DNA of 64,000 nt from an uncultured virus (IMG/VR IMGVR_UViG_3300028591_000111) (IMGVR_UViG_3300028591_000111); one strand, 5' to 3'; shown: positions 13,776 through 46,480, counted from the first letter of the stretch. Made by a program: numbers and translations. Notes: generated by a model from the sequence alone, not told the origin.

Positions 13776-15467
13776 TTATTTTTGGGGTTCGGGATCTTTA
13801 TCTGGGGGCTGTAATATATATGCTGTCACTACCTGCGGTGTTGGAATAGGTGTTGGAATAATCGCTTCTTCATTTGGATTCCAATAGCCACAAATCAAAT
13901 CATCTGGTGAAACATCTGGATTTCTGCAATATTGTGAGTTTGGATAACCATCCAACTTAAACCCTAACACCAACCTTCCTGATTTTCCATATGTCACACC
14001 ATTGATTACTGCCTCAAAGCCTGACATCTCCGAAGATCCCCAATTCGTAAAGCCATTATTACCAATGCTTACATAAGGAAATATTCCCATACGATTATTA
14101 TACACATCCGTTGGCATAAAATACATATTAGACATATCTTTTTGGCCATTGCACCACATCGGACTGATATACAACTGATCTAAATACTGTATCGCTTTCG
14201 TTCCACCTTTTTTACCATCTTCATTCTCATCGCCACTATTCCCTGCATCGCTATTATCACCTGCATCACCATTATCAACATCAACTTCAATCCCTGACTT
14301 GCCTAAATGGATGCCCTTTTCCCACGATGTCTTTACTATCATTTCACCTGTGACTTCTTCTATCCCTAATTTCTCTTTGTTTACTACTGCATACACCTCG
14401 CCTGTATATGTCTCATCCTTCTTATCAAAATAATAAGGACTTATTTCTATATCATATTCTTCATATAATCTGCCGAAATCAAATGGCAAGCTCGGATCGT
14501 CTGCATCGTGAATCATGCATTGATTATCTATCACATATAACGATTTTGGCAACTTCACATAATAATAATTATCCTCATTAGAACCATCAACATTTATATC
14601 TTCATAATTCGCTATATAGATTTCTTCTATCGCTGTCGAATCTATCGACCTTAATAACTCTATCAATTCAGCATCATAAAAAACTATACAGTGATGCTTG
14701 CTTAATTCCCTAAATGTATCTAAATGACATTTGTCTGGCAAATAACTCGCATCTTTAGATGGCATCACATCTATAAACTTAGGTCTTAATCCACCTTTAT
14801 CATCTATCGGCAACACTGGCATTATAGTTTCATCTGTATTTAAAACACCATTCACCTTAAACTTTACTTTAATTGGAATAAGATCATAACCCTCATCTAC
14901 AGGAAAAATCTTACCACGCAAATTATCATTGCTACCTTTTCTTAATAGCCCATCATCATTGTTATCTTTATCATTATTCTCTTTGTCTTTTTTGAATAAA
15001 TCAAATGTTTTAAATCCACTTGTTTTATTGACATTAACACCTTGCGTTGCGACACTCTTTTCACCTTCATTTACTTCGCTCCAATGAACAAGCAGGTATG
15101 TATTTATTGTCGTAAATTTAACGCCAAAACATGTCGAATATTTCTGTGCAAATTCTTGCCCCATTTCTGATACCACATGATCATAATATTCTTGTGGCAG
15201 CTCAAAACTATATAAATTTATAAGACCATCATAATATTTTATATGAGATGAATCACCAAGATATTTCATATAAGATATACTGTCTGATAAAAATTTATAA
15301 TACATCTCAGAGATTTCCTCGCCACCTACTTCTTCAGAATCAAGCACAAATGACGTTTTGCTCACTGAATCTACCAAATGCTTATAGTCTGCATCTAATT
15401 CTTCATATGTAGGAAACTCTATACTCATTGTACACGGCAATTTTTGATCATAACGCATAACTTTCAT
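13776..15467 (-). CDS. Hypothetical large acidic protein, paralog of 12095..13639
   Basis: ORF 563 aa, AGGAG RBS, colinear motifs with its neighbour. Confidence 0.75.
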   Translation of the reverse strand: MKVMRYDQKLPCTMSIEFPTYEELDADYKHLVDSVSKTSFVLDSEEVGGEEISEMYYKFLSDSISYMKYLGDSSHIKYYDGLINLYSFELPQEYYDHVVSEMGQEFAQKYSTCFGVKFTTINTYLLVHWSEVNEGEKSVATQGVNVNKTSGFKTFDLFKKDKENNDKDNNDDGLLRKGSNDNLRGKIFPVDEGYDLIPIKVKFKVNGVLNTDETIMPVLPIDDKGGLRPKFIDVMPSKDASYLPDKCHLDTFRELSKHHCIVFYDAELIELLRSIDSTAIEEIYIANYEDINVDGSNEDNYYYVKLPKSLYVIDNQCMIHDADDPSLPFDFGRLYEEYDIEISPYYFDKKDETYTGEVYAVVNKEKLGIEEVTGEMIVKTSWEKGIHLGKSGIEVDVDNGDAGDNSDAGNSGDENEDGKKGGTKAIQYLDQLYISPMWCNGQKDMSNMYFMPTDVYNNRMGIFPYVSIGNNGFTNWGSSEMSGFEAVINGVTYGKSGRLVLGFKLDGYPNSQYCRNPDVSPDDLICGYWNPNEEAIIPTPIPTPQVVTAYILQPPDKDPEPQK

Positions 15468-15649
15468 TCTCCTATATTATCCAATGCCTATAAAACTCTT
15501 ATAAACACTCGTTGTTATTCCTTAATACCTATTGCAATCACTTGCAATCAAACAAAACAAAAACACAATGCTGTTTTATTATAGATAATTTTTATCTCTA
15601 TTTTATTAAAAAATTCATCACTATTTTATTCAATAGCAATAACAATAAA

Positions 15650-17015
15650 AAAAAACAAAACAGTTCTGGCTATCTGCATTCACTCACAATCAACAAAGCT
15701 CTTAATGGAGACGACGGCGACACTGCCATTCGAGTGCATGGTCTTAGGTGACTGCCATCAAACACAAATTCACATCAATCACTCCATCTCAATATAAGCT
15801 CATACATAACAGCCTTTCACTGCATAGGTATCTCGGCGACGAAAGAATCACATGCCGCATCACATCTAATACCATTAAACTAATGCTACCCATCTGCAAT
15901 CCTTTAAGCCTATCTGCTTTCAACTACCTGCTGAATCACAGAACCAAACCAGAACCTATTGTTTCTGCTTTCTCGCTATCAATTCACAGGTCAAGAAATT
16001 AATCACAATATGAAATGTTATCAATGATAAACAATGATAATTTCAAAAACAGCTCATTCACAATCAATCTACTTTTTTTTTACCTTGAACTGCGTAAACT
16101 AATAACACGACACACATCATACACTTTTCACCCATAACCATGATTAGGGTAAACTAATAACGTGCGCCTTAAAAAGCACTTAAAACTCAGATAAAATCTA
16201 AGTCCAAATTAAACGATACATACCAAAAATCAAAAAAGATTATTCAGCAGCACCTATCAATAAAGAACAGCAAAAAGATAATTTCGATCATCCAGTCACG
16301 CTTGCCAGCTTTCCAGAACTCAAAACATAATGCCTCATAACTACACAATATATTCATAGCTTACCTTCTCTCTACGTCAATATTAAACAACATCATGCAG
16401 CAAGACATTCAGCAAATAGTCTTCTAGGCGGAAAGACATTGAGTTATCCATCAGTGAAATTATTAGTGACAAAACACTAATCATCACTGCTTCGTACACC
16501 CAAATCTAACGGCTTCGTTCACTTCTAAATATACCACGCAGAAACGACAGCATCATACCATCATTCCTTCAAGCCAGTTCTTCATATAACAAACCTTAAC
16601 AATCAATCATAAATAAACACCAGAAAGCACAAGCGTAACACATACCAGACCTTGCACAAATTCTGACATCCATATAACAACCAATCTTTACAACAAACCA
16701 ATATCATTGTCCGTCGGGGCTTGCTCTCATTTATCCGCTTTATAGTGAACTTAATCACGACCCTATTTTAGAAAGCACATTCCCAAATCGTATAACAGCT
16801 ATAACTCACTGCAATGCCAGAATTTTAAGTGGTAGGTGGCTCACTCTTAGGGGTACAACCACTTTGCCGATGACACTCTAGCTTCTGACAACAATTCAAT
16901 CAATTTATTGCCATAATAGTTTGTTATATTCAGAATGACATAACTAAACTCTCTATTATTAACTTTTCAACATGTCAGACAATCCCAGCTTGCACCGAAA
17001 CCTTCCGACAATATC
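15650..17015 (-). ncRNA. Candidate giant structured ncRNA, copy A (about 1.37 kb)
   Basis: No credible ORF; colinear conserved blocks shared with 26590-28435; TTTCTATCTA motif at 17020-17029 (-); U-tract at 3' end. Confidence 0.65.
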
Positions 17016-17086
17016 TATATAGATAGAAACTCTATTTTTTGCAATTATAATCAAAATCATTCTTTTGCTTAAAAGGAGGTGCTATC

Positions 17087-18208
17087 ATGCAAAGCAATAA
17101 TAATAAAGAAATAAAAGTTATTAAAGTCGTTGAATCAAATATCAATAATAATAACATATCACAGGAAACTACTTGCTACTCTTGCAACAATAATAACAAT
17201 TGTTCCAAATGTGACAACAACGACTGCACTAACAATAATAATGTTAATTGCACATCAACAGATAATAACAACAACCAAAACACCACTTCAAAAAATCCAT
17301 TCAAACGCATCCTAAACAATTTAATCAATATGTTCGGCGTCAGTGCAATCAAAACAAACAAAACTGCTAACACAAACAATAACACTAATAACAATACAAA
17401 TACAACAAATAGCTCATGCAATAACAATAATTGCACTGAAAATAAAAATGCTAATAACTCCAACACAAATAAAAAACAAACAACGCAGGAATCTACCGAA
17501 AAACCTGTCGAAAAGCAAAAGTTCATAATTGATTTCAAAGAAATAAAAAATGCTAAATATAAAAATGGTGGCAAATTCAAAGCTACACCTAAATGGATCG
17601 TCGTTCACTATACTGCCGTCATTGGCGCTGGTGCTAAATCATGCGCAACTTCTTATGCTAAAACTACACGCGCCGTCTCTACTCACTTCTTCTGCGATAG
17701 CACTGACATCTATCGCTGCGTCGATGAAAAGCACATTGCATGGCACGTTGGAAACGGAACTGTTCAACAGCCATACAAAGACAAAAAACTCTCACTGCAA
17801 GAACTCGTCGAATATGGCGATAAGCCTAATTGGAGATTCAAACTCGCAGCAGAAAATCATTTGAAATGGATTGACAACGGCGAAGACTTCAAAGGAAACA
17901 GCACTGCTTTCGGCGTCGATCTTTGCACCCTAAAGAAAAATAAAAACAGCAATTCTGCCACCGATGAAGACTGGTATTTCAACGATGGCGCAATTAAAAA
18001 CGCACAAAAATGTGTCGCTTATCTCTGCCATAAATACAATATCGGAATCGACCATGTTATCAGACATGCAGACTCAACAGGGAAGCCATGCCCGCGACCT
18101 CTTGCTTCTCTAAGTGGTGATAAAGATAAAACAAAAAACGATAATCTATGGTTCGACTTCAAACGTAATGTACAATATATTCTCGATAATTATGACTTCG
18201 ATAAATAA
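17087..18208 (+). CDS. N-acetylmuramoyl-L-alanine amidase (Amidase_2) endolysin with Asn/Cys-rich N-terminus
   Basis: IVVHYT, STHF, AWHVG, VIRHAD..GKPCP zinc-amidase motifs; AGGAGG RBS. Confidence 0.88.
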   Translation: MQSNNNKEIKVIKVVESNINNNNISQETTCYSCNNNNNCSKCDNNDCTNNNNVNCTSTDNNNNQNTTSKNPFKRILNNLINMFGVSAIKTNKTANTNNNTNNNTNTTNSSCNNNNCTENKNANNSNTNKKQTTQESTEKPVEKQKFIIDFKEIKNAKYKNGGKFKATPKWIVVHYTAVIGAGAKSCATSYAKTTRAVSTHFFCDSTDIYRCVDEKHIAWHVGNGTVQQPYKDKKLSLQELVEYGDKPNWRFKLAAENHLKWIDNGEDFKGNSTAFGVDLCTLKKNKNSNSATDEDWYFNDGAIKNAQKCVAYLCHKYNIGIDHVIRHADSTGKPCPRPLASLSGDKDKTKNDNLWFDFKRNVQYILDNYDFDK

Positions 18209-18312
18209 AATCGAAATCAATTTATCACATAACATAAATAAAGCATCTTACATAACAACAGCAACAAACATCTTATATATTATAACCATCTAACAACATA
18301 AAGGAATCACAC

Positions 18313-19767
18313 ATGGCTGCTAAACAAATTAAATTAAAATTCACACTCACTCATTTAAACAACTATGCTGGCGGCGCGGAAAAATTCTTAAATGATTTAA
18401 AGACCGCTTACGCATCCATAATGCGCATTGCAGATAAACAAACAGGAAGCGATGTCTTTAGTTTTGGATTGGCTTTCTTTCCACAAGATGACCCAAACCA
18501 CTTCTATTCTGGTGAAACCGATGACTGTCAAAAGTTAAATCAGATAAATTCATTAACTATTTATCGCGTCGAAAGCAATCTAATTCCTGACACACCAGTC
18601 GCTCCTAAATCAATAAAACAAACAAAAAATGATAAAGACACAGAAAACATCATTATCAATGATAATAAGGAAATCGCCATACTAAAACTCGAATTCCTTA
18701 ATCTAGACAACACAGTCTATAACATGCCTGATAATGCCACTATCAACGGCAATGAACTCGAAATCTCTTTCCTTGAAGCAGCATCTCACACTATAACTTT
18801 CACAAATACAACACATGGTGAATTTGATATTGATCTGCCACTGCCTATTAATGTTCCCGATGGCGAAAATATCCTTCTGCCATCCGTCTCTGGCCAGTTT
18901 GAAGATGAAGATTATATTTACACTCCATCACAATGGGATATAGGTGAATTCGGTGAATCAATTTATCCAATTCAAGATATGACCGCCGACCTCATGTGGA
19001 ATAGAGAAGAAATTCCAGAAACTTTGCCTACCGTTAGTTTACATGGTGATTTCGGATCTGACAATTGGTTATATACGGACTCGTCACAAAGCTCCTCAGT
19101 TAGTGTTGTGTCAAATTCTCAAATAGGATTATTACTGGATCGTTCTTACCAGACTTATGATGATTCTAAATCTTATGCCGTACAACAATGGTATGTAAAT
19201 TCTTCTACTGTAGGAACGACAGGCGACTTTATCATTACAAAACAGGGACTAACGCAAATCGCAGCAAAGAATGTTAGCAGTTCCACAAAGTACATTCTGA
19301 AAGCAAGAGTAGCAATCTGTTCATCGAATCAGGCAGAGATCGTCATTGTTTACAACATGTCAAATGAATCCTTTAATGCATTTAAATACACATTAGGTGG
19401 AACTGATTATTATTACGTTTTGGATGGCGCTCAGACCGATTGGACGGATGATTTAAGTAGTATTGGATATAGTCTTGATCCTCCTGCACCTTTGGGATTG
19501 ACGGCGTATTTTACAACTCAAGGTTCTGCTGGTACATCTGATACATATGTTCGTACAATTGATTACCCATATTTATATGATGCAAATGGGCTTCTGATTT
19601 CTTATGATTCAAGTAAAACATACACTGTAGTTGAGGTGAGACAGTATGATGGAACTGTTTTAAGTTTAAGTTCTTATGTAACAGGTTATTCTGATGGCTT
19701 CGCATTATATTTTCATCAGGACTCAGGGAATTATAATATGTATTTAGTGATATATACAGAATCATAA
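18313..19767 (+). CDS. Putative virion surface/tail-associated protein
   Basis: 484 aa, S/T/Y-rich beta-type C-terminus; function inferred only. Confidence 0.55.
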   Translation: MAAKQIKLKFTLTHLNNYAGGAEKFLNDLKTAYASIMRIADKQTGSDVFSFGLAFFPQDDPNHFYSGETDDCQKLNQINSLTIYRVESNLIPDTPVAPKSIKQTKNDKDTENIIINDNKEIAILKLEFLNLDNTVYNMPDNATINGNELEISFLEAASHTITFTNTTHGEFDIDLPLPINVPDGENILLPSVSGQFEDEDYIYTPSQWDIGEFGESIYPIQDMTADLMWNREEIPETLPTVSLHGDFGSDNWLYTDSSQSSSVSVVSNSQIGLLLDRSYQTYDDSKSYAVQQWYVNSSTVGTTGDFIITKQGLTQIAAKNVSSSTKYILKARVAICSSNQAEIVIVYNMSNESFNAFKYTLGGTDYYYVLDGAQTDWTDDLSSIGYSLDPPAPLGLTAYFTTQGSAGTSDTYVRTIDYPYLYDANGLLISYDSSKTYTVVEVRQYDGTVLSLSSYVTGYSDGFALYFHQDSGNYNMYLVIYTES

Positions 19768-19777
19768 AGGAGATTAA

Positions 19778-20083
19778 ATGATATTTGAATGGATATAAAA
19801 TTTAACATCTTCTTCTCCAGCAAATCTCATGGATAGTGTAGGAAATCCTATACCATATGAAAATGGTGTAACATATAAAGTTGTAGCCGCATTCAACAGA
19901 ACTTTCCAAGTCAATTTTGATTATTATAGTAAATTTACTGGAAATTCATCAGTAGAAATGCTCTGGTATTTAGATCTTATATCTATTGTCAATAATAACG
20001 GTGTCGCACAAGCTACAATAAGTAGTGAGTCTGTCGAAGCAACATATCTTTTGATCAAAAAAACACCTACGGCAACCAATTAA
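19778..20083 (+). pseudogene. Small gene with in-frame TAA at codon 7; resembles the C-terminal domain of the upstream protein
   Basis: AAGGAG RBS + ATG at 19778 in frame with ORF 19829..20083; TAA at 19796-19798. Confidence 0.5.
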
Positions 20084-20099
20084 ATAAAGGAGTTCCGTT

Positions 20100-20492
20100 A
20101 TGAAAGAAACAAAAACAACAAAAGAAATCAGAACATCACAGAGGCGTTATAGCCCTATTAAACACGTCAGGGAATCCGTCGAAGGAAGCACCACCGAAAA
20201 CCTCATCACTGACATTCACGAAAGCGCCAACGCCATCAACGACAGACTGTGTACTGTCATGCGAATTGATGATGAAGATTTAGTTATCACACTAACACGC
20301 TTCGGACTATGGATTGAATGGAAAAAAAATCCTGAATATGGCGTGTCTGTCGAAGCATGGGGACGCTCTATTGCTGTTAGCGGATGGATGGGCAATAACA
20401 TAATCAGCAAGGATTATTGTGATGCAGACGCAAGCAGAAAAGAACTTGCAAGCGTTATTGACAGAGTTGTTATGCGTGATGGAAAAGTATAA
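20100..20492 (+). CDS. Hypothetical protein with basic leader ending VRES
   Basis: AAGGAG RBS, 130 aa. Confidence 0.7.
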   Translation: MKETKTTKEIRTSQRRYSPIKHVRESVEGSTTENLITDIHESANAINDRLCTVMRIDDEDLVITLTRFGLWIEWKKNPEYGVSVEAWGRSIAVSGWMGNNIISKDYCDADASRKELASVIDRVVMRDGKV

Positions 20493-20511
20493 ACAAATAT
20501 AAAAAAATAAT

Positions 20512-20883
20512 ATGGAGAATATTATGATTAGAAGAAAACGACATTTTTATGAAGAAAGATCTGAATCAAGAACTGAAAAGAATTTAAAAACAATTATATC
20601 TTTATTGCTTGAAAATAAAGATTTTAAAGCGTTAGCGCAATGTCCAGTAATAGGATGCTTCAAGCTTGCATCTTATATGATTGGACGCATCAAAGATGAT
20701 TTAAACGATGTATCTGATCAAGGATTATCATCAGACACTTATTTGGATATACAAAGTCTTAGGGCTGATTTAAAAAATTGTTTGGATTTTATGACTTCTG
20801 TCAATAGAAGGCATTTTACTATGTCAAATTATAGACAACTTGTAGATGATTTGAAAGATTCTATTTCCCTTTTAGAATCATAA
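20512..20883 (+). CDS. MIRR-leader family protein (probable start 20524)
   Basis: MIRRKRHFYEE; GGAG before 20524. Confidence 0.7.
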   Translation: MENIMIRRKRHFYEERSESRTEKNLKTIISLLLENKDFKALAQCPVIGCFKLASYMIGRIKDDLNDVSDQGLSSDTYLDIQSLRADLKNCLDFMTSVNRRHFTMSNYRQLVDDLKDSISLLES

Positions 20884-20916
20884 ATAATCAATAAATATAA
20901 CAAATTACAAATACTA

Positions 20917-20953
20917 AAAAAGCCTACTGCGTTATTACAGTAGGCTTTTTTTT
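20917..20953. terminator. Bidirectional intrinsic terminator between convergent genes
   Basis: aaaaagcctactg...cagtaggcttttt. Confidence 0.85.
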
Positions 20954-20969
20954 GCGGTTAAAAAAGTTT

Positions 20970-21416
20970 TTATCTTCTTTTATAATTACTACGAATATTA
21001 CGACGTTTTACACTTTCATCATAATCGTCTGACTCGCGACGACCAATAGCTTCTTCAACATCTACTGGATCAAATGCGTTCCAAACATCAGCACCATAAC
21101 CGAAATCTAAATCACCATAAAATCTACCAACTTGTTTCGTTTCGCCATTCAGATTGTTACGGACATAAACATAGCCTCGTTCTTTTTCTACATCATGCAC
21201 AAGAACGACCCTGCCTGCTAACACACGTTCATAATCTCCCCATAAGAAAATGTCACCTGTCCCATTAGCGTGCCATTCAACATCGCAAGAAATTCCATCC
21301 TCTTCAAACGCATCTATAATCTCATTGCAGAAATCTTTTAATTCCTGCACTCCTAAAATATCATTATCGGTAAATGTAGATTCGTTTAACCTTTTGTTTC
21401 TAATTCTTCTAATCAT
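20970..21416 (-). CDS. MIRR-leader family protein
   Basis: MIRRIRNKRLNES; C-terminal ESVKRRNIRSNYKRR. Confidence 0.75.
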   Translation of the reverse strand: MIRRIRNKRLNESTFTDNDILGVQELKDFCNEIIDAFEEDGISCDVEWHANGTGDIFLWGDYERVLAGRVVLVHDVEKERGYVYVRNNLNGETKQVGRFYGDLDFGYGADVWNAFDPVDVEEAIGRRESDDYDESVKRRNIRSNYKRR

Positions 21417-21454
21417 TGTCTTTACCCTCTTTGTTGTTATTGGTTATATAGGAT

Positions 21455-21536
21455 GCGCTCAGTTATAAACACAAAGAGCGCTCAGTTATAAACACAAAGA
21501 GCGCTCAGTTATAAACACAAAGAGCGCTCAGTTATA
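21455..21536 (-). repeat. Perfect 23-bp tandem repeat x3.6 (gcgctcagttataaacacaaaga)
   Basis: Directly visible; lies between TTCTATCTA (21539-21547, -) and the RBS. Confidence 0.95.
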
Positions 21537-21580
21537 TTTAGATAGAATGTCGGTTTTAGTTAATATGATTTATTTAATTA

Positions 21581-22393
21581 TTAAAATGGCATTTCTTCAT
21601 AAGAGTTAATCTTGTCAAGATATTCTCGTAATTCTTTTTGAGCTACTGATTTTTTGAAACCAACGACAGAACCGTCTGATGTTATATCTAAGAAAATATA
21701 ATCACCCCAACCTCTGTCACCAACAGCTAATGCTTCTGGTACATATTCTCCAATTGCCTCATAATAATAATTAGCAGTATATATTTTATATATGCCTTTA
21801 TCTACCATCTTATAGTAACATCCAAAGTCACCATAATGCCAATCTAATATTTTACCAGTTTTTAAATCCAATGTAAGTGAATCTGGTAACTTACGAGCTA
21901 TATCTTGCTGATCACCAAGATAGCTATCTTCATCTAGCGAAAATTCTATTTTTGTAAATATTTCTTTTGGTGTTTTAAAATCTACTCTTTTAATAGATTC
22001 AGAATAACGATGATGTCTTGCTTCTTTTGTAGGTCTTCTAATCATAGTACACTCCTTTTTGTTTTCATTAGCATCTGAAATCAAAACACGATCTAAAACA
22101 TCTCTGCTTGAGAATGAAGCTTTGTTGTTGTCTGCAAACTCGACTGCATTTTTGAAATCATCAATGACTGCTTCCCAGTCTTTATCATCCAATCGAGATG
22201 AAATATTTGAAATTGTATTATCAATTGCATCTAATAATAATTCATTGCCCTCAAGTCTATCATAAAGACGATCTACTTTACGGCTAAACTCATCATCTTT
22301 TTCCGCTGCCTTAATATCTCTTTTTATTTCCTTAATCTCGGCGCTCACTTCTTTGCGTAATGACTGTAATTCTCTTTTGTTTAAACGTTTCAT
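21581..22393 (-). CDS. Hypothetical protein; contains an internal MIRR start at 22045
   Basis: AAGGAG RBS before the internal MIRRPTKEARHHRYSES. Confidence 0.7.
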   Translation of the reverse strand: MKRLNKRELQSLRKEVSAEIKEIKRDIKAAEKDDEFSRKVDRLYDRLEGNELLLDAIDNTISNISSRLDDKDWEAVIDDFKNAVEFADNNKASFSSRDVLDRVLISDANENKKECTMIRRPTKEARHHRYSESIKRVDFKTPKEIFTKIEFSLDEDSYLGDQQDIARKLPDSLTLDLKTGKILDWHYGDFGCYYKMVDKGIYKIYTANYYYEAIGEYVPEALAVGDRGWGDYIFLDITSDGSVVGFKKSVAQKELREYLDKINSYEEMPF

Positions 22394-22527
22394 AAAAACT
22401 CCATTATCATATATTCAGTTATAGGATGCGCTGTCTTACAAAAAAAAACAGCATGAATAAAACATGCTGTTTTTAGTAGATATGAAATAGAATGTCTATA
22501 ATTGTTTAATTATAACAAAAGACAAAA

Positions 22528-22830
22528 CTATAAATATGCTTCTGAATAATCATCTAACCATTCTTTATACTCATTGACATTATGGATAGTCCATTCACTT
22601 GGTCTACTATAAAATGTTGTATGAATAATATGTACATATTTAGGATTAGCAGCTACCTTAAACATACCATCTAAATCATCTTGAAGAAATATTGCTTTTT
22701 TAGATGCTTCTGTTGTTAGTTCCTCATATCTACCTGATTTCCTAAAATGGTCACATAAATCATTATAAATATCTTTTGTTTCAGAATTTAATTCTGATTC
22801 AAATTTTCTGTTTCTAATTCTTCTAATCAT
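22528..22830 (-). CDS. MIRR-leader family protein
   Basis: MIRRIRNRKFES. Confidence 0.75.
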   Translation of the reverse strand: MIRRIRNRKFESELNSETKDIYNDLCDHFRKSGRYEELTTEASKKAIFLQDDLDGMFKVAANPKYVHIIHTTFYSRPSEWTIHNVNEYKEWLDDYSEAYL

Positions 22831-22863
22831 GACACAATCCTTTATGCTAAGTATCTTATAGGA

Positions 22864-22917
22864 TGCGCACGATTATACAAAAAGTGCGCACGATTATACA
22901 AAAAGTGCGCACGATTA
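22864..22917 (-). repeat. Perfect 21-bp tandem repeat x2.6 (tgcgcacgattatacaaaaag)
   Basis: Directly visible upstream of a MIRR gene. Confidence 0.92.
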
Positions 22918-22939
22918 CTAATAGATATATTAGTCGAAA

Positions 22940-23269
22940 TTACAGTAAATAATATAAAGAATTACGACGTAAACGCTTTGCAAATTTTACAAATTCATCG
23001 CTGTCTTTCAGTAAATTGCCTAAAGCATGTAGTGCATAACCTGTATCACCATTTGTTCCATCATAAGCTTCATCGTTCTTGTGTTCTTCTAATTCGTTGG
23101 CTGCTTTCATTATAAGACCAACTATCGTATTAAGCATTTCCATTTCCATTTCAGTAAGCGCGCCATCGACCAAATCAGCCAATACTGGATATTTAGAAAT
23201 CCAATTATAATCGCTTGCTGGTCTTCTGTTTCGTGCTTCAAAACGTCTGCTTCTAATTCTTCTAATCAT
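22940..23269 (-). CDS. MIRR-leader family protein
   Basis: MIRRIRSRRFEA; upstream ggacgcgcca x2 (23303, 23327) and TTTCTATCTA at 23346-23355. Confidence 0.75.
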   Translation of the reverse strand: MIRRIRSRRFEARNRRPASDYNWISKYPVLADLVDGALTEMEMEMLNTIVGLIMKAANELEEHKNDEAYDGTNGDTGYALHALGNLLKDSDEFVKFAKRLRRNSLYYLL

Positions 23270-23360
23270 GACACACTCCTTAAAAGTTTTGGTTATTTAT
23301 TAGGACGCGCCACAAATACGAAACAGGGACGCGCCATAATTGTTATAGATAGAAACCTTC

Positions 23361-23978
23361 CTAAAACAGTGAACGCTCTATATGCGGATTATTATTGTCA
23401 CTCGGTCTATCATTATTCTTGTAATATTTAACCAAGTTCTGAAATACACATCCATCACTTAATCTTTTTTTGAATTCATCGACAACAGCTATATAATAAC
23501 AATTCTTTGGATATTTCGTATCCTCAATTCTCTTTGGCATAATATCCATCTCTTTAGAGATTTTCGTCAATATCTTGCCACACTGCGAATAAAAATTATT
23601 GTCACGTCTTTTTATAAAAAATTCGTCATACCAATCAATCGCCGTCACTTGTTTCCAATTGCTGCCAAATCCAATCTCATCTTTCAGTTTGTCGTTTTCT
23701 GTGACAAGCTCCGTATTTGTATCTGTGAGTGTCTTATTCTCAGCAGTCAGACGTTTGCACTCTTTTGATTTCTGACTTGCTGTATTCATCGCTGTCGCTT
23801 CACGCTTGCTGCCAATCCATGATTTCGTTACAATCGCATAATCACGTTGTGATATTGCCAACACCTTTTGCTCTGCCTCGAATTTAGCCTGCAATTCTGC
23901 GTTACGTTGTGCCTCATACATATCTGCACATGCACGCGCCGCAGCTATTGGATCGTTAAAGTTAGGCATTACTATCAT
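23361..23978 (-). CDS. Phage antirepressor-like C-terminal region (probably N-terminally truncated)
   Basis: PNFNDPIAAARACADMYE and coiled coil typical of Rha/KilA/Bro antirepressor tails. Confidence 0.55.
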   Translation of the reverse strand: MIVMPNFNDPIAAARACADMYEAQRNAELQAKFEAEQKVLAISQRDYAIVTKSWIGSKREATAMNTASQKSKECKRLTAENKTLTDTNTELVTENDKLKDEIGFGSNWKQVTAIDWYDEFFIKRRDNNFYSQCGKILTKISKEMDIMPKRIEDTKYPKNCYYIAVVDEFKKRLSDGCVFQNLVKYYKNNDRPSDNNNPHIERSLF

Positions 23979-24104
23979 GTTGTTTCCAATGTATGGTTTA
24001 ATCTCAGTAGAATTGCTTGTTTTTGTTTATGCTTTAATTAAAACACAGTTAAACGCCTAAGAAAAAGCTATAACCGCTAGAAGTATGGAAAATGTATACA
24101 GTTT

Positions 24105-25127
24105 TCAGTAACAATCTCCAAAAACATCAATATAATCAAAATAAGAATAATATTTATTGTTTATGCTATCCAATTTCAAATCTATAATTTCGTTAAACTC
24201 TAAACATTCATAATTAGCACAATATCTGCTATAATCACTTATACATTCTATGCTTGCAATTTCCATTTTCTGTTTAATCTTATCTTCAATAGATTTGTTT
24301 GTTACTGAATTCTTTTGGTGAATATAACTTCTATAACCATCTTTCTCACAGTATGTGCAAAATCTAATACCGTCAATAAAAGATCTAATTGCGCGAGTGA
24401 ATATATTACCGCATTTTAAACATCTAAGTACAACAAGTGTTCTTCTGCCTTTAACAGATATAGCAGACTCTGTTCCTATAACACTACAATTACCATAAAC
24501 AGAACCAATTCTTATTTTCTGAATAAGCTTATCTCTACTATAAGAAATAAATTGATTTCCGTTTATTATTTCTTGTGTAGTCTTTCCTTTGTTTAATTTT
24601 ATTAAACTACTAACTTTATATCTTTTTTGATATTCGGATAATTTATTAGAAACATAAACATTATTAACAACTTCATCAATAGTAGATGTTTTGACTATTT
24701 GTTTAAAGCACACGTTTCCTGCAACAAATCGAAGACTTCCATCTTTTGTACATATGTGGTATTCAAATCTATCATCCGTCATATCCATATCAGAGGCATC
24801 CATAAATTTCATTATCTTTTTTGCTCTATCACAAACAAAATCCTCATTCCCTTTATAATATAATTTTAGTTTGCTTAATGCCACTGTTAGTTTTTCATAT
24901 TCTTTAGACATTGTTATAAACTTGTTTGTTCCACTATAACATATACAACTATTTAATTTACCATGTCTAAATTGTTTCAGCAGGTGATTGTAATTTTTTT
25001 CAATCACTTCCCCACATTCATTGCATTTTAACTTTATTGTTGCATCATTAATTCTGGATGTAGGTTTGTTTGTTTCAACAACACTATAAACTCCATAAAC
25101 ATCACCAACTTTGATCTTTTCTGACAT
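24105..25127 (-). CDS. Zinc-ribbon repeat protein (homing-endonuclease-like DNA-binding modules)
   Basis: Two K.GxxYG..xV...LxCxxCG modules. Confidence 0.55.
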   Translation of the reverse strand: MSEKIKVGDVYGVYSVVETNKPTSRINDATIKLKCNECGEVIEKNYNHLLKQFRHGKLNSCICYSGTNKFITMSKEYEKLTVALSKLKLYYKGNEDFVCDRAKKIMKFMDASDMDMTDDRFEYHICTKDGSLRFVAGNVCFKQIVKTSTIDEVVNNVYVSNKLSEYQKRYKVSSLIKLNKGKTTQEIINGNQFISYSRDKLIQKIRIGSVYGNCSVIGTESAISVKGRRTLVVLRCLKCGNIFTRAIRSFIDGIRFCTYCEKDGYRSYIHQKNSVTNKSIEDKIKQKMEIASIECISDYSRYCANYECLEFNEIIDLKLDSINNKYYSYFDYIDVFGDCY

Positions 25128-25140
25128 AATTGCTACCTAC

Positions 25141-25420
25141 AAAAAAAACAGTGTAATGTATAAAAGTATATATGATAATATACAACTTAATATACATTAC
25201 ACTGTCGTCCAACCACCCAACTGCGCAAGCTATTTCGCTTTGTTCGCAACGCCTAGCACAATCCTTTGCATCACCAGTTTTGACCTTCATCTGAAGGTTA
25301 GTGTGATTAATTAATCACACTTGAGATTTATTGAATATTGACTGTATTCTCAATCTCGATGTTAAAAGAATTTGCTAGTGCATGAACGATAGGTTCTTAT
25401 GTCACTATCTTCATGCACAA
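25141..25420 (-). ncRNA. Candidate structured sRNA or leader
   Basis: TTGACA (-) at about 25446-25451, several long hairpins, terminator stem cagtgtaatgtata...tatacattacactg + U-tract. Confidence 0.4.
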
Positions 25421-25595
25421 CATATATATTTCTAAATTAAAATCTTGTCAATTAGTTTGTTAAAAACAAATGAATAGGAATTCTCAGACATTAATATCTT
25501 TGGTGTTGATTTTAGCTAACAATTATAGTAGCTTTTTTTTGCATGTGTTCTAATTTTGAATGCAACATGACTTTGAATAAGAAGGATTCAAAAAA

Positions 25596-26579
25596 ATGCA
25601 AACATCCAAAAAAACGAAAAAGAAACAATCTGCGTCAGACAGATATTGGGAGCTGTTCGCCTGTTTTTGCTTTGCCGAAAATCAATCTGGAACATACACC
25701 GAGCTTATTGATAGAGTAAACTTTTACAATCAAACGCAGATGTTTGTAAAAAAAATCCCGATATCTGCAACGCCTGATAATGCTTGTTTGTTACGTTACG
25801 CAAGAAATCTGTTTTTTGGTATCCCTAAAGAAATTCCTTCAACACAATACGATTATCTCTATTTTCTTGTATGCAGACTTTCTTTGTTTGAAAACTGGCT
25901 TCAAGACAACTTTAAATTTTATCATTTGGATTCAAACATTGATTACATTGTATCTATTATGAAACCTTTTATACCATCGAGATTTAAGGAATTAAATCCT
26001 GAAATGAATGTGATTGAAGAACAAGGCATGTTAGCTTTGGGTATCGCAGGGTTTAAAGGTGATCTTTATCAAGAAGCTATTGATAAGATTGATTCATGGA
26101 GAAAGTCGAATCCAAGCAACGAAGAGATAATTTGTAAACTTCATTGTTTTCTTGACGCAGATTTTACACCAATATTTAAGACTGATGATATAAAGGATAA
26201 ATCAACAGAATCTTTAATACAGGCTGTGTACAAATTAAAAGAACAAGGAAACTATGATTTCACATGGCAGGGTAAAGATATTTCAAAAATGCGTGTTGAT
26301 ATACCTGAAAGTGGAACTTTGATCCCAGATAAAGAAGATTCAAAAGATTGGGATACAACAAAAAACCTGTATATTGAAGGTGACAATTTAAGAGCATTAA
26401 AATTACTTATGCCCGCGTATAAAGGAAAAATAAAAATGATCTACATCGACCCACCATATAACACTGGACACAAATTTTGCTATAAGGATGATTTTAAGCA
26501 AGAAACGGAAATCTTTGATAGATTCTTGTTTAATCAAATACCAATAGCTCCAATTGATAGTCAATTGAAACGAATATAA
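25596..26579 (+). CDS. Unknown N-terminal domain fused to a truncated type III R-M Mod (methyltransferase) fragment
   Basis: NLYIEGDNLRALKLL...KIKMIYIDPPYNTG; ends before the SAM-binding FxGxG motif. Confidence 0.7.
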   Translation: MQTSKKTKKKQSASDRYWELFACFCFAENQSGTYTELIDRVNFYNQTQMFVKKIPISATPDNACLLRYARNLFFGIPKEIPSTQYDYLYFLVCRLSLFENWLQDNFKFYHLDSNIDYIVSIMKPFIPSRFKELNPEMNVIEEQGMLALGIAGFKGDLYQEAIDKIDSWRKSNPSNEEIICKLHCFLDADFTPIFKTDDIKDKSTESLIQAVYKLKEQGNYDFTWQGKDISKMRVDIPESGTLIPDKEDSKDWDTTKNLYIEGDNLRALKLLMPAYKGKIKMIYIDPPYNTGHKFCYKDDFKQETEIFDRFLFNQIPIAPIDSQLKRI

Positions 26580-26589
26580 TCAATCCATT

Positions 26590-28435
26590 GCTGGCTATCA
26601 TTTGATGGCGCGCTCGAACAAAAATCAACTGCAATTGCATTCACACTTCAAAGCGGCGACGAACGACATAAAGCACTCTGTCACAGCCGAATAAAACAAA
26701 CACACAGCAGGAACAAACACGGACGCAATGCAGTCACTCTATTATCACAGCGCCGCAATCATAACCAAGTCATCCGTCATCGGCTATCATCTAGCATCAT
26801 CCCGATAAACGAAACTTGTCCATTAAAACTTGCTACACCACGATAAACAGAACTTTATAATTGAATGTCAAAGTAAAATTGACATTTGCATAACTTGGAA
26901 ATTGACCAACACTAAACCAATGTCAAAATCCAATTGACAACTTATGCAAAACGGAAACAAACAACTAAATCCAATTTACAAGTTTCGCTTTTCGCAGACA
27001 CAGCTATTGCAACCACCAACTAACAACTTCTGCTTTTTGACCTGCAAAAAGGTAAACGCGTCGCTAGGGTGCTGCTCAAACATTCTGAGCTTCGCGAAGA
27101 TAAACTTATTAGGTATGCTTCGCCAGCACTCAAAATACCTAGGTTTTATCTAGGTTTTATTCAAGCGACAATCACCAGAAATTGTGAAATTTTTGGCAAT
27201 CATCTATGTGAATGTGCAACGTTATCTGCCAGACTGTCCAGCAAGCTTTTCAATCCGACAAGCCAACAGCATCAGCTATCAGCAATAACGAAAACAAACA
27301 ATAACAAGATAGCAACAACAAAGACTTTCCATAACATGTGCATCTCCGTACAAGCGGCGCGCCATAAATCAAACAACTTTATCTTACCTGCAATGCCATT
27401 CAGACCAGCGATCTTCTAGGCGGACAATCTCAAGTTATCCATCATCACTACAATCAACGCAGCGAATCATCAAACGATAATAACGTTTCGTAGTGACGCT
27501 TCGTACACTCAAGTTCGTCGGCTTCGTACATCGTCAAGCTGCATCATCATAACACATACGCAAATACCTCAATACAAATATTACTGCCAGTCAAATCAAA
27601 AGAATCAATGACCATCATTCAAACATCATTGTCCAAGACAGCCCGTTTCCTATTATCTTCTTTATAGTCAACTACCCACCGCCTAAAGGCTGGTGGGCTT
27701 GTAACTGATCAGTAGTGTATGCGAATGTTTAATTCTTCTACCTTTTATCGCTCTGCGGCTTTGCTGCGAGGCGTACCGTTACATCGTGGGGTGATTGACT
27801 GCACCCCGTAGGCTTAAAATATATTTAAGACCCACTTAAACAGAGTTCTTGGTGTTTAAGTTCAGAGAGTGCCTTCAGTCCAAGTACCTAACGGTTTTCT
27901 CTCAAAACTTCAAATACCAAATATCACTTTACAAAGCAAGCAAGATTTTTAGTTGGCTCGCTTACCAACGGGCTAAAGCCCGTGGGCTTCCGCTCGCCTT
28001 ATAATGAACTTAATCATAACCGAAAACTAAAAGCTCAATAGAACTTCTCTACTTTAAGATTTAATCTAAAAGCGTTATCGGTACGGCTAACACTAAATAA
28101 AAGTGTTAGCCAAATATTCTCAATTTATATTGAGAACCCCAATTACGAATGAGGTTAAAACGATTAATTTATCACAACCCTATTCAGGAATCGCATTCGT
28201 CTTGCATAACTCTGCATAACACAAAGCATAGTGTTTATTTTGTGGGGTAGCAGGCTCACTCATGGGGTACAACCTGATTGCCGATAGTCCACTAGCTAAA
28301 CACAACAATTCAATCCAAACGAAAGCATTAACGCTTTTAATCGTCATGGCTGAATCTGCCATCACTCTCTCATATTAACTTGTCAACGTTTGAGAATTAC
28401 ACCGACCTTGCGGGCAGCGTAACCACTCATGTTAT
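26590..28435 (-). ncRNA. Candidate giant structured ncRNA, copy B (about 1.5 kb without the inserted element)
   Basis: Colinear blocks shared with copy A; TTTCTATCTA at 28441-28450 (-). Confidence 0.62.
27667..28003 (-). mobile_element. Non-autonomous IS200/IS605-derived element (about 337 bp, no ORF)
   Basis: Subterminal hairpins AAGCCCAC..GCTTTAG..GTGGG at both ends; right end GTAGTTGAC; left end resembles 30109-30160. Confidence 0.8.
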
Positions 28436-28628
28436 CTTTATAGATAGAAAGTCGATTTTTATGTTTATGAACTTAATCATAAGCAAAACAATCTCTTATG
28501 CTATTATATATATAACAACTAATTTTATGCAATCTTTTCATTTGATTTTTATCATTATTGATAGTAATTTTTTTTATGAGTTGTTATAACTCTAACACTA
28601 ACAAACAGATTATTAAGGAGCTTCTTAA

Positions 28629-29219
28629 ATGAACATTAAACCAATCGAAACAATATACAAAGGTTACAGATTTCGTTCAAGACTTGAAGCAAGATGGGCT
28701 GTTCTATTAGATGCTATCAACGCACAGTGGGAATATGAACCTGAAGGATTTGACCTCGGCAACGGTATAAAATATCTTCCTGATTTCCGTGTCAACAATG
28801 TATATATAAAATATCCAGAAGGAAATCCTATAACTCTATATATTGAAGTAAAAGGCATTTTAACAGAAGAAGATGAAATAAAAATTAACAAATTCGCTTC
28901 ATGTTTTCAAAATGATGCGTTTTGCTGTTATACCCCTGAAAATCCAATTTTAATTGTAGGTGAAATTCCTAAAGGTGATGATACTTATGCTCTCATTTGT
29001 GATTCAAGATGTAAATATCCAATGGAAAAATTAAACTCTATGTTTTTCAATTTCGATCTAGTCGATGGAAATTCATATAGTGCTATGTTGGGTATTAGCA
29101 AGACAGGTGATACTATCGTTTATGGATCAGACCAAACAGAATATGTTGATGATGAAAAAACAATAAAAGCCTATAACAAAGCAAGACAAGCAAGGTTTGA
29201 ACATGGTGAAAAACCATAA
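28629..29219 (+). CDS. Phage PD-(D/E)XK-type nuclease-like protein
   Basis: FRSRLEARWA...WEYEPEGF...YLPDF...IEVKG. Confidence 0.75.
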   Translation: MNIKPIETIYKGYRFRSRLEARWAVLLDAINAQWEYEPEGFDLGNGIKYLPDFRVNNVYIKYPEGNPITLYIEVKGILTEEDEIKINKFASCFQNDAFCCYTPENPILIVGEIPKGDDTYALICDSRCKYPMEKLNSMFFNFDLVDGNSYSAMLGISKTGDTIVYGSDQTEYVDDEKTIKAYNKARQARFEHGEKP

Positions 29220-29505
29220 TAAAAAGGTTACACCGAGTATGTACGTTGGGAAACAGTGAATAAATACCTGTCAGATTTATCTTTCCCAACTAGCTGGGAA
29301 AATCAAAATCCGCATGATTGCTATATTCCAGAAAACATATGATTAACTCGGTGGCTTTCGTTTTATGCTGCAAATAAAAATCCGAAATGCAGAACTTCTT
29401 AATTGGATGTCAAAACAAAATTGACAATAAACAGAACTTCATAATTGAAACTAACAACCAAACAATAAAACACCATTATTAAAACAACACACTGCCAGCA
29501 AAAAA

Positions 29506-30108: not shown

Positions 30109-31516
30109 CAAAGTGCGAGCCGCAAGCCCATCTGCCTTTAGGCGGTGGGTTAGGCGAGCAAATAAACATATTTTCTTTCTTGCATAATAAATAACTCTAT
30201 GCTATCTATATGATAGTGTGGCTAGTGATTGCAACACGAAAAGACGTACAGCCTAACGTCCGCCACACTCTCTTTTTAGAGACATTTAGGCAAGTATTCA
30301 AGGCTAAATACCATGTTTAAGGCATTTAAGTACAGATTATACCCCACTGCACCACAGGCAGAGAAAATCAACCAAAACATTGGTTGTGCCAGATTCGTGT
30401 ATAATCAATTACTGGATGACCGTATTAAAGTCTATAATGAGACTAAGCAGAAGTCCAAAAAGACTTACTCTGCTCTGAAAGAAGATCATGATTTTTTGAA
30501 ACATGCAGACAGCCGTGCTTTGAAAAATGCTCAGGCTAACTTGGATGAAGCATATAACAAGTTTTTTAAAGAACCAAACACTGGTTTTCCAAAGTTTAAG
30601 TCTAAGCACAAATGTCGTTGGAGTTACACCACAGACAATAACAATAATGCCATACACTTCAAAGGAAACAAACTTCAACTTCCAAAAGTGGGGGCAATAA
30701 GAGTTGTTCAACATAGAGACATTGAAGGTAGGATACTCAGTGCCACAATTAGCCTTGAACGTAGTGGCGAATACTATGCTTCTATCTTGTGTGAGATTGA
30801 ACAACCAGAACTATTACCAGTCACTGAAAAGAAGATTGGTATAGACCTTGGATTACATGCTTTAGTTGTCTGTTCTGATGGAGAACAAGTTGAAGCACCA
30901 AAGTGTTTCAGGGAAACAGAACAAAAATTAGTCAAAGCACAACGAAAATTTGCACGAACACAAAAGGGTAGTAATGGACATGAAAAGCTCCGAATAAAAG
31001 TTACCCGTTGTTATCAGAAAATAAAAAACCAACGTAATGATTTTTTGCAGAAATTATCGGCCAAACTTATTAACGAAAACCAAGTGATTTGTTTGGAAGA
31101 TTTATCTGTAAAAGGAATGCAGAAAAACCACAAACTTGCTAAATCTGTTAGTGATGCTAGTTTTGCTAAGTTTGTTTCTATGCTTGAATACAAAGCAGAG
31201 TGGTATGGACGAACTCTTGTTAAAATAGATAGATTCTATCCAAGTACACAAATTTGTAGTAGTTGTGGTTTCCAGAATACTTCTTTAAGAGGATTGAAAA
31301 ATTTGAACAAACGAGAATGGATTTGTCCAGAATGTGGAGAAGTTCATGATCGAGACTTGAATGCCTCAAGGAATATACTCAAAGAAGGATTAAGAATATT
31401 GAATCCACGGAACGTGGAGGATAGCGAGCTTACTGCATGTCACACTAATAGTTTTTCTATTAGTGGAGGTGTGCTTGCACTCGAAGCCCACGGGCTTTAG
31501 CCCGTGGGTAGTTCAC
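30109..31516 (+). mobile_element. IS200/IS605-family TnpB-only element inserted 3' of TTGAC
   Basis: Left hairpin 30114-30160; right end GAAGCCCACGGGCTTTAGCCCGTGGGTAGTTCAC; exact in-frame rejoining of flanks. Confidence 0.9.
30313..31500 (+). CDS. tnpB: RNA-guided endonuclease TnpB
   Basis: [12 protein letters not shown]; RuvC IGIDLG / EDL / DRDLNA; CSSCG...CPECG zinc finger. Confidence 0.95.
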
Positions 31517-31779: not shown

Positions 31780-32170
31780 TTTAATAATATTCTATAAAAA
31801 ACCGCTTTTGCAGAATATTCTTAAAATTAAAGAGACATCTGTACGGTGATTTTTTGGTAAAATAAAAAAATTGACATAAAAACGTCTAATAAAATTCTGT
31901 TTTTATATAAAAATTCCAAAAAACAAAACAAATATTGAATTTTACACACACGTTTTTAACAAACTCCGACTGTACACAAGTCTGTTTTTATAAATATGTC
32001 AATTTTTTAGAATATTATTCGTAATACAGTTATCCACAAACCTATCAACAACTGTGAATAACAAAACATCTTATCCCAATTAAGAACTTCTGCATATCGA
32101 AACAATACGGCAACTTCCAATTATGAAGTTCTGCATTTCACCACTTAACAGCAACCACCCAATTCACAAC
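31780..32170. other. Candidate replication origin
   Basis: TTATCCACA at 32030-32038, CTATCAACA at 32042-32050, TGTGAATAA at 32053-32061; adjacent AT-rich inverted repeats; strand-skew switch. Confidence 0.55.
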
Positions 32171-32174
32171 TTCT

Positions 32175-32360
32175 GCAAAAAGAAAAATGGCGGCAACCAG
32201 TTTCCCAGTCACCGCCATTCACCACATCCATCTACTTGAATATGAATACTCATAACTCAATCGCGTTTTCTCTATACAACCAACTGAACACATCTATCTG
32301 ATAAATCGTGTGATTCGGAGGTTCGCGAGCGCCTATGCGAACGCAGCACGCTTGCACTTA
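32175..32360 (-). ncRNA. Candidate sRNA of about 185 nt
   Basis: TTTCTATCTA at 32366-32375 (-), no ORF, GC-rich terminator atggcgg...ccgccat + U-tract. Confidence 0.45.
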
Positions 32361-32384
32361 TATTATAGATAGAAAGGTAATTAT

Positions 32385-46367: not shown

Positions 46368-46480
46368 GAAAGACGCGCCATTATTACAATGAAAGACGCG
46401 CCATTATTACAATGAAAGACGCGCCATTATTACAATGAAAGACGCGCCATTATTACAATGAAAGACGCGCCATTATTACA
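46368..46480 (-). repeat. Perfect 23-bp tandem repeat x4.9 (gaaagacgcgccattattacaat)
   Basis: Directly visible; abuts TTTCTATCTA at 46481-46490 (-). Confidence 0.96.

Follow-up and report, generated by a model that had tools for sequence, protein, structure and literature searches.

What do two long loci without open reading frames (ORFs) encode in the genome of a phage? The question is posed by a 64,000-nucleotide stretch of DNA from an uncultured virus (IMG/VR IMGVR_UViG_3300028591_000111; henceforth the window), part of the genome of a T4-like phage as judged by a T4-type portal at 34016-35821 (PF07230, E 8e-41). An earlier, sequence-only reading had taken the regions 15650-17015 (locus A) and 26590-28435 (locus B), both read on the minus strand, for two diverged copies of a giant promoter-driven RNA. 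We find that A and B share a homologous non-coding module of about 600 nt whose pairing is conserved through compensatory changes, and it is highly probable that both are real structured-RNA genes. The giant size of 1.4-1.8 kb is not supported, since the homologous unit that covaries spans only about 570-635 nt and the 3' parts are unlike; a new class of RNA is kept as the best reading.

That both loci lack credible ORFs was confirmed. Frames in the standard code reach at most 84 codons in A and at most 131 codons in B, and an alternative genetic code was rejected because no single or double reassignment of stop codons opened a long frame across either locus. Among the small ORFs of at least 15 codons in A and B none has a good Shine-Dalgarno sequence, and none of 10 small ORFs compared with Pfam reached threshold, the sole row being DUF896 (E 0.28, 11.5 bits against a cut-off of 24.2). 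A comparison of A with B by tblastx returned only matches of at most 52 codons that are mirrored in all frames, so the similarity is one of nucleotides and not of protein. A decayed protein gene, which the sequence-only reading had named as its own possible refutation, was rejected on these mirror matches together with the lack of a Pfam match.

How far does the likeness between the two loci extend? All nine pairs of coordinates given earlier for shared motifs are exact in both loci, and for most of the motifs these are the only two occurrences in the window. By blastn, A 17060-16751 matches B 28480-28168 (66% identity over 322 columns, E 8e-27), A 16751-16627 matches B 27673-27541, and A 16453-16382 matches B 27444-27368. 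In a global alignment the 5' parts score 101 against 6.5 +/- 2.4 for shuffled sequences (z = 39), whereas the 3' halves (A 16380-15645, B 27368-26545) score 8 against 9.3 +/- 4.1 globally and 21 against 20.2 +/- 3.0 locally (z about 0). The claim of colinear islands therefore stands for the 5' part as true homology, while two islands placed further 3', CTGGCTATC and CGGCGACGAA, are at chance level because the 3' halves score at the shuffle mean. Judged from these alignments, the homologous unit of A measures about 635 nt and that of uninterrupted B about 570 nt, and the 3' 740-820 nt of the two loci have no likeness above chance.

The module can be folded into a 5'-terminal hairpin followed by two domains. 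In RNA A the terminal hairpin (16970-17009) carries a GCAA tetraloop of the GNRA type and folds at -17.5 kcal/mol (z -4.0, with 0 of 200 shuffles as good), and in RNA B a hairpin at the same place (28429-28391; -17.8 kcal/mol, z -3.5) has a different sequence and the same GCAA cap. The core of domain 1 in A is about 200 nt long (16703-16901). Three elements lie within its closing helix AUUGUU/GACAAU: a long hairpin in three parts, whose end is GGUUGUAC-CCCUAAGA-GUGAGCC; a second, small hairpin; and a long-range helix that carries the GAUUAAGUUCAC hairpin at its apex. Its counterpart in B is split: the 5' two-thirds lie with the terminal hairpin at 28178-28430, up to an insertion point (66% identical to A), and the 3' strand with the GGACAAUGAU closing helix and a linker follows at 27536-27667, as placed by blastn homology, alignment and the consensus fold. 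Domain 2 of A (16418-16526) consists of a helix UUGGGU/ACUCAA around the internal loop GUACGAAGC / AUGGAUA together with a variable hairpin, and the conserved CCGCCUAGAAGA comes after it; domain 2 of B (27410-27535) has a longer variable hairpin and covaries with that of A. One multi-helix junction, the three-branched junction of domain 1, is supported in addition to domain 2. From invariant sequence we would also guess at a contact between a loop ACCC and AAUAGGGU, an ACCC/GGGU pseudoknot.

Does this pairing reflect selection? Besides A and B, two near-identical strain copies were available for comparison, L001 and L003, which came out of an exact-motif scan of metagenomes that found three loci; the third, L002, was rejected as a chance match inside a coding region. 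A consensus fold of A, L001 and uninterrupted B by RNAalifold has 79 pairs, 18 of them with double changes. In the core of domain 1 (alignment A6) 97.1% of the cells of 51 pairs are paired and 16 pairs are changed on both sides between A and B, against 0-4 in slid controls and 8.1 +/- 2.0 in 500 shuffles, none of which reached 16. Domain 2 has 27 pairs with 99.1% of cells paired, 8 of them changed on both sides against 0-2 when slid, and over both domains 24 of 78 pairs keep pairing through two-sided changes (slid controls, 0-4). Because the consensus came from the same sequences, the minimum-free-energy (MFE) structure of A by itself was mapped onto the alignment, and it gave 11 double changes (slid, 1-4). 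When A and B are folded separately by MFE, both arrive at the same distal hairpin (GGUUGUAC...GUGAGCC with flanking GG/CC pairs); the fold of B also has the two basal consensus helices, which the fold of A puts in a register that B loses.

The strain copies tell the same story on a smaller scale. The sole substitution of L001 in domain 1 turns GCAA into GUAA, which is still a GNRA loop. The hairpin that had been described as having different stem sequences in A and B is real and covaries, and in the variable hairpin of domain 2 the window's B and L003, 97-99% identical, show seven differences: two pairs are changed on both sides (C-G to U-A and A-U to G-C), and two one-sided changes keep or improve pairing. 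The strand can be read from the pairs themselves, since G-U occurs in 17 of 102 domain-1 cells and would be A-C on the opposite strand; the fold thus belongs to the minus-strand transcript. A covariance model of domain 1, R1, scores 245 bits at A and 123.5 bits at B (28096-28314), and run over the whole window with filters off it found no third copy, only A, B and a duplicated hairpin inside the insertion in B.

Directly upstream of both loci stands a common promoter-like motif (17020-17029; 28441-28450), in agreement with the sequence-only reading. On the minus strand it forms part of TTTCTATCTATATAGATA at 17012-17029 before A, with a -10-like TATATA inside, and of TTTCTATCTATAAAGATA at 28433-28450 before B. 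The form TTTCTATCTATA[A/T]AGATA precedes both loci and has seven matches at no more than two mismatches against 0.03 expected, and TTTCTATCTAT, with an embedded TATAAT-like hexamer, recurs upstream of many genes of the window and stands four times in a perfect 60-nt tandem array at 1-247. Of the promoter-like motif TTTCTATCTA there are 13 exact copies in the window, four of them in this array, upstream of the gene 263-1306, with 11 other sites. We infer from this distribution that TTTCTATCTAT is a phage promoter and that transcripts would start near 17009 and 28430, 3-5 bases before the 5' hairpins.

Are the loci found in RNA? The data are contigs from three metatranscriptome libraries (X5, X19 and X20) of two studies, alongside a DNA run (X2), and contigs from the RNA libraries lie on the module of both copies. 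They cover 16715-17001 and 28177-28319 in X19, 16754-16969 and 28177-28401 in X20, and 16297-17066, 15902-16324, 28102-28477, 27704-28105 and 26719-26944 in X5. Among the pieces longer than 18 nt listed for X19 and X20, all fall on domain 1 of A, domain 1 of B or a leader at 25.2-25.4 kb and none on a protein gene, which we do not count as support, missing cover in contigs being no evidence; in X2, made from the same sample, all 30 bins are covered. The earlier idea of a promoter-driven large RNA in two diverged copies thus holds as to a non-coding minus-strand RNA with compensatory changes in its fold and contigs in RNA libraries, and is not supported as to giant size.

The position of the module at the start of transcription units raises the alternative that it is a leader acting in cis, either by processive antitermination in the manner of HK022 put and EAR or by stabilising the message, with read-through past weak stops into the downstream minus-strand genes. 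Both modules indeed head runs of such genes (the 563-aa and 525-aa genes 3' of A; the 340-aa gene and later ones 3' of B), and features of the hairpin or U-tract kind lie between modules and genes at 16293-16273, near 15650, at 26571-26547 and, as a hairpin with U8, at 25206-25140. RNA contigs of X5 moreover cover the 3' stretch of A, and X5 also shows depth where the 563-aa gene begins (bins 14536-15803). The module has in common with put and EAR that a structured RNA opens the transcription unit and that stop-like hairpins stand ahead of the genes. However, a B transcript would have to run for 1 kb antisense to the convergent plus-strand methyltransferase gene that follows B (25596-26579), the downstream genes have their own copies or a variant of the promoter motif (near 15590-15575, by eye), and contigs cannot demonstrate co-transcription. 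Processive antiterminator RNAs are about 70-120 nt long, unlike the two-domain module of about 600 nt, and on balance we consider a cis-acting leader unlikely.

The greater length of B had been read as an expansion segment. It is instead due to a strain-specific insertion of 509 nt (27668-28177) in the apical hairpin of domain 1 of B, a site that is empty in relatives: L003, 97-99% identical to B, does not have it and carries 14 other letters there, and the empty form also occurs in the DNA run X2 and in RNA contigs of X19 and X20 (joint 27667>28177, with loose ends). The insertion is composite. Its 338 nt at 28005-27668, on the minus strand, correspond to a non-autonomous element of the IS200/IS605 type, with subterminal hairpins, a place 3' of a pentanucleotide, no target duplication and presence/absence polymorphism; the end hairpins give 28-nt matches of 93-96% to both ends of a TnpB element at 30109-31511. 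The insertion lies 3' of TTCAT and ends in GTTGAC, and the TnpB element lies 3' of TTGAC and ends in GTTCAC. The remaining stretch of about 170 nt (28177-28006) ends in a partial copy of the target hairpin (R1 match 27995-28020). The related element at 30109-31511 is itself a TnpB-only element of the IS200/IS605 type, encodes a 395-aa TnpB at 30313-31500 and is absent from L003. At the insertion site the empty B allele of L003 reads TTCCC, A reads TTCAC and occupied B TTCAT; one might guess that TTCCC is an escape change beside the site. In the modelled fold, the apical hairpin of the long-range domain-1 helix can be seen as a place that tolerates extra sequence.

With such traffic around them, could A and B be decayed genes or remnants of mobile elements, devoid of present function and alike only through duplication? 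Mobile DNA abounds here: the TnpB element and the 509-nt insertion are absent from relatives, and a cassette has been swapped beside the B promoter. Strains also differ more densely in B, with 43 differences over about 1,400 nt against 6 over about 1,780 nt in the flanking genes. Yet no frame carries a protein-level signal, pairing is kept at 97-99%, with 24 double changes, in copies whose identity is only 66%, the hairpin varies between strains in a compensatory manner, and the module is present in RNA libraries. We regard dead remnants as very improbable.

The ORF-free 3' stretches require separate consideration. The one of A (15645-16417), on the minus strand and non-homologous to that of B, has a U-tract at its end (about 15660-15640) but no convincing terminator stem, and its end hairpin is no better than shuffles. 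The one of B (26545-27409), likewise on the minus strand, ends at a hairpin (26571-26547) that it has in common with the convergent methyltransferase gene. In folding energy the A stretch has z -3.7 on the minus and -0.2 on the plus strand, and the B stretch -5.1 and -3.3. Within the latter, four copies of the iteron-like CAGAASTTNNNAATTG are spaced at 41-42 nt (26848-27032), and sister arrays lie at 29390-29447 and 32077-32175, making 11 matches in all against 0.57 expected; A contains no such repeats. The cumulative GC skew of the window reaches its minimum at 32-33 kb, and the arrays near it are a candidate replication origin or other protein-binding region.

These repeats bear on another explanation, that the loci are replication origins or other control regions acting at the level of DNA, with transcripts that activate or prime the origin, as in the R-loops of T4 oriF/oriG or ColE1 RNA II, and proteins bound to the repeated sites. 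Besides the arrays and the skew minimum, the composition of the A and B transcripts (G-rich and C-poor, with 12-16% C) agrees with it, and like the known origin transcripts they would be promoter-driven, structured and non-coding, with iteron-like repeats in or near B. Against it, the repeats are missing from A, the strong skew is common to the adjacent minus-strand genes, and what the two copies have kept is a folded RNA with compensatory changes and G-U pairs, not the repeats, which argues for selection on RNA rather than on duplex DNA. An origin element is thus an improbable account of A and B.

A single RNA of about 1.4 kb per locus, with a conserved scaffold of about 600 nt and a fast-evolving, copy-specific domain of about 750 nt, stays in consideration on account of the nearly equal lengths of the loci without the insertion (about 1,366 nt for A and 1,392 nt for B), the minus-strand fold scores of the 3' stretches, and a 3' 10-mer, UUCGUCGCCG, which is found in both copies and could base-pair with ACGAA, a conserved part of domain 2. 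We think this doubtful. If true, no larger structured RNA, ribosomal RNAs and introns aside, would be known from a phage, and the variable domains would give the paralogues different targets.

Does the module belong to a known family? Rfam 15, run with lax filters on A (15400-17200) and B (26500-28700), returned no family at gathering score. Relaxing the limit to E <= 10 added only four rows per locus (E 0.35-9.3), which are of snoRNA type or far below gathering and are taken as chance; cow-rumen-2 was not among them. Group I and II introns, RNase P, tmRNA, OLE and HEARO were rejected as identities for want of an Rfam match; of the related rows, HEARO reached 17.3 bits (E = 1, against a gathering score of 83) on the plus strand within the insertion, and a plastid group II intron 16.2 bits (gathering score 140). 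Membership in ROOL (RF03087) or GOLLD (RF01998) was likewise rejected for lack of a covariance-model match, and the suggestion that A and B are expanded relatives of these RNAs is not supported. A/B and the window's two int-alpA RNA copies (RF02996) have short strings in common (CUAG, AUCGGC and AAGAGUGAG), but int-alpA identity was rejected, there being no match at E <= 10 and GAGUGAG lying on the opposite side of the helix. The int-alpA RNAs themselves lie at 32498-32569 on the plus strand, with 44.6 bits against a gathering score of 35.8, and at 40075-40145 on the minus strand, with a sub-threshold 31.9 bits. In both cases a TTTCTATCTAT motif and a TnpB-like or transposase gene (32570-33991; 38723-40066) are the immediate neighbours on either side.

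In kind, A and B nevertheless resemble ROOL and GOLLD as large, multi-domain, ORF-free structured RNAs linked to phages or prophages, with function unassigned. The passages of PMC5737381 consulted describe ROOL as first found in cow rumen and 581 nt long on average, with only rRNAs, GOLLD and group II introns exceeding it in size and complexity, and place ROOL and GOLLD often near tRNAs and in prophages or phages. On that description, the 570-635-nt module falls within the range of ROOL and not beyond it, as had been supposed from its span, and rumen or gut is the habitat of both. The phage context is found here too (portal and endolysin). Unlike ROOL and GOLLD, the module comes without a match to either model, without a single tRNA gene in the 64-kb window, and as two diverged paralogues, each under a phage promoter. 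At the level of abstracts and the same passages of PMC5737381, the literature contained no description of an equivalent RNA.

The search for relatives was otherwise empty. Neither A nor B has a blastn match among GenBank phages. Exact-motif scans, which would miss diverged relatives, gave 0, 20, 26 and 0 loci in IMG/VR, none of the 46 being related by blastn (one, with E 0.009 over 68 nt, was taken as chance), and two scans of GTDB genomes gave 0 and 0 loci. The phage itself is distant from those in GenBank, with portal identity of at most 29%; its nearest portal relatives, 81-98% identical, lie on metagenome contigs of 150-260 kb, and four sequencing runs that contain it are labelled gut or sheep-gut metagenome. 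IMG/VR searched with the 563-aa protein and the portal, singly or as a 13-sequence profile, yielded no relatives.

Several features of the neighbourhood deserve mention in their own right. The window also encodes an amidase endolysin, RtcB and three TnpB-like genes. Downstream of A, the section 14861-15376 of the 563-aa gene, which has 18-nt tandem repeats, is hypervariable: 355 other letters stand there in the DNA run X2, and the section also differs in L001. The cassette beside the B promoter occupies 28469-29339 in the window and 3217-4468 in L003, where 1.25 kb with an unrelated 330-aa ORF takes the place of the window's 196-aa endonuclease-like gene (phrog_21138). Just before the 340-aa gene, 25140-25400 on the minus strand is a non-coding leader or small RNA that ends in a hairpin of at least 16 bp followed by U8 (z -4.7) and is covered by RNA-library contigs (X20, 25207-25392; X5, 25214-25667). 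A candidate small RNA of about 180 nt (32175-32357, minus strand) starts after a TTTCTATCTAT motif at 32366-32375, and its end near 32213-32175 reads by eye as a GC-rich hairpin with a U-run. Perfect tandem repeats (100%) of 21-23 nt in 2.6-4.9 copies, each unit with a short GC-rich palindrome, occur at 21455-21536, 22864-22917 and 46368-46480; the first and last arrays are flanked by a promoter motif on one side and by the start codon of a small minus-strand gene on the other, and the middle one lies directly upstream of the start of a 100-aa gene, with no motif copy found beside it.

What might the RNA do? We favour a role in trans, as a scaffold or decoy, over a cis-acting leader, an origin element or dead remnants. 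Each locus would be transcribed on the minus strand from the phage-specific promoter TTTCTATCTAT; the transcript would start with the GNRA-capped hairpin and continue through the multi-helix domain 1 into domain 2 around its invariant loop GUACGAAGC / AUGGAUA; as a stable RNA it would act during infection, with the invariant loops and the tetraloop binding a protein or another RNA, and the 3' stretches, which are not homologous, would be either tails left by read-through or extensions particular to each copy. No strong enrichment of repeated motifs for protein binding (GGA; C/D-box-like UGAUGA) is seen in the RNAs, only CGAAGC standing out (6 against 0.4 expected), and an operator-like TGTCAA-N8-TTGACA has three matches, none of them in A or B. 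That the two paralogues represent a new family of large structured phage RNA and act in trans, a joint judgement that blends the reality of the genes with their role, is in our view somewhat probable; the action in trans as scaffold or decoy, taken alone, is put forward tentatively.

A number of points count against this proposal. The independent sequences are two, A and B, with two near-identical strain copies, so the covariation rests on one paralogue pair, and the consensus fold was derived from the very sequences tested. On one of five measures, pairs changed on both sides in domain 2, 73 of 500 shuffles did as well, and the MFE of the domain-1 stretches is weak against shuffles (z -1.7 and -1.3). 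The RNA evidence consists of contigs without strand, ends or level, from libraries in which DNA is possible, and contigs of X5 extend to 17066 and 28477, 37 and 27 nt upstream of the motif, which misfits a start at 17009 and 28430 unless transcripts overlap. Terminator scans and folds gave no convincing terminator at the 3' end of A or B, and the searches of GenBank phages, IMG/VR, GTDB and metagenomes (the last three by exact-motif scans) found no homologue outside this phage lineage.

Large, intricately folded RNAs of bacteria and phages are rare, and another family of about 600 nt would be a fresh case beside ROOL and GOLLD. Here two diverged paralogues lie in one phage genome, each with a phage promoter and each found in rumen RNA libraries. 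The pair constitutes a built-in comparison, in which invariant loops, as candidate sites of binding or tertiary contact, can be told from covarying stems, and the mobile element in the apical hairpin of one copy marks a part of the fold that tolerates disruption.

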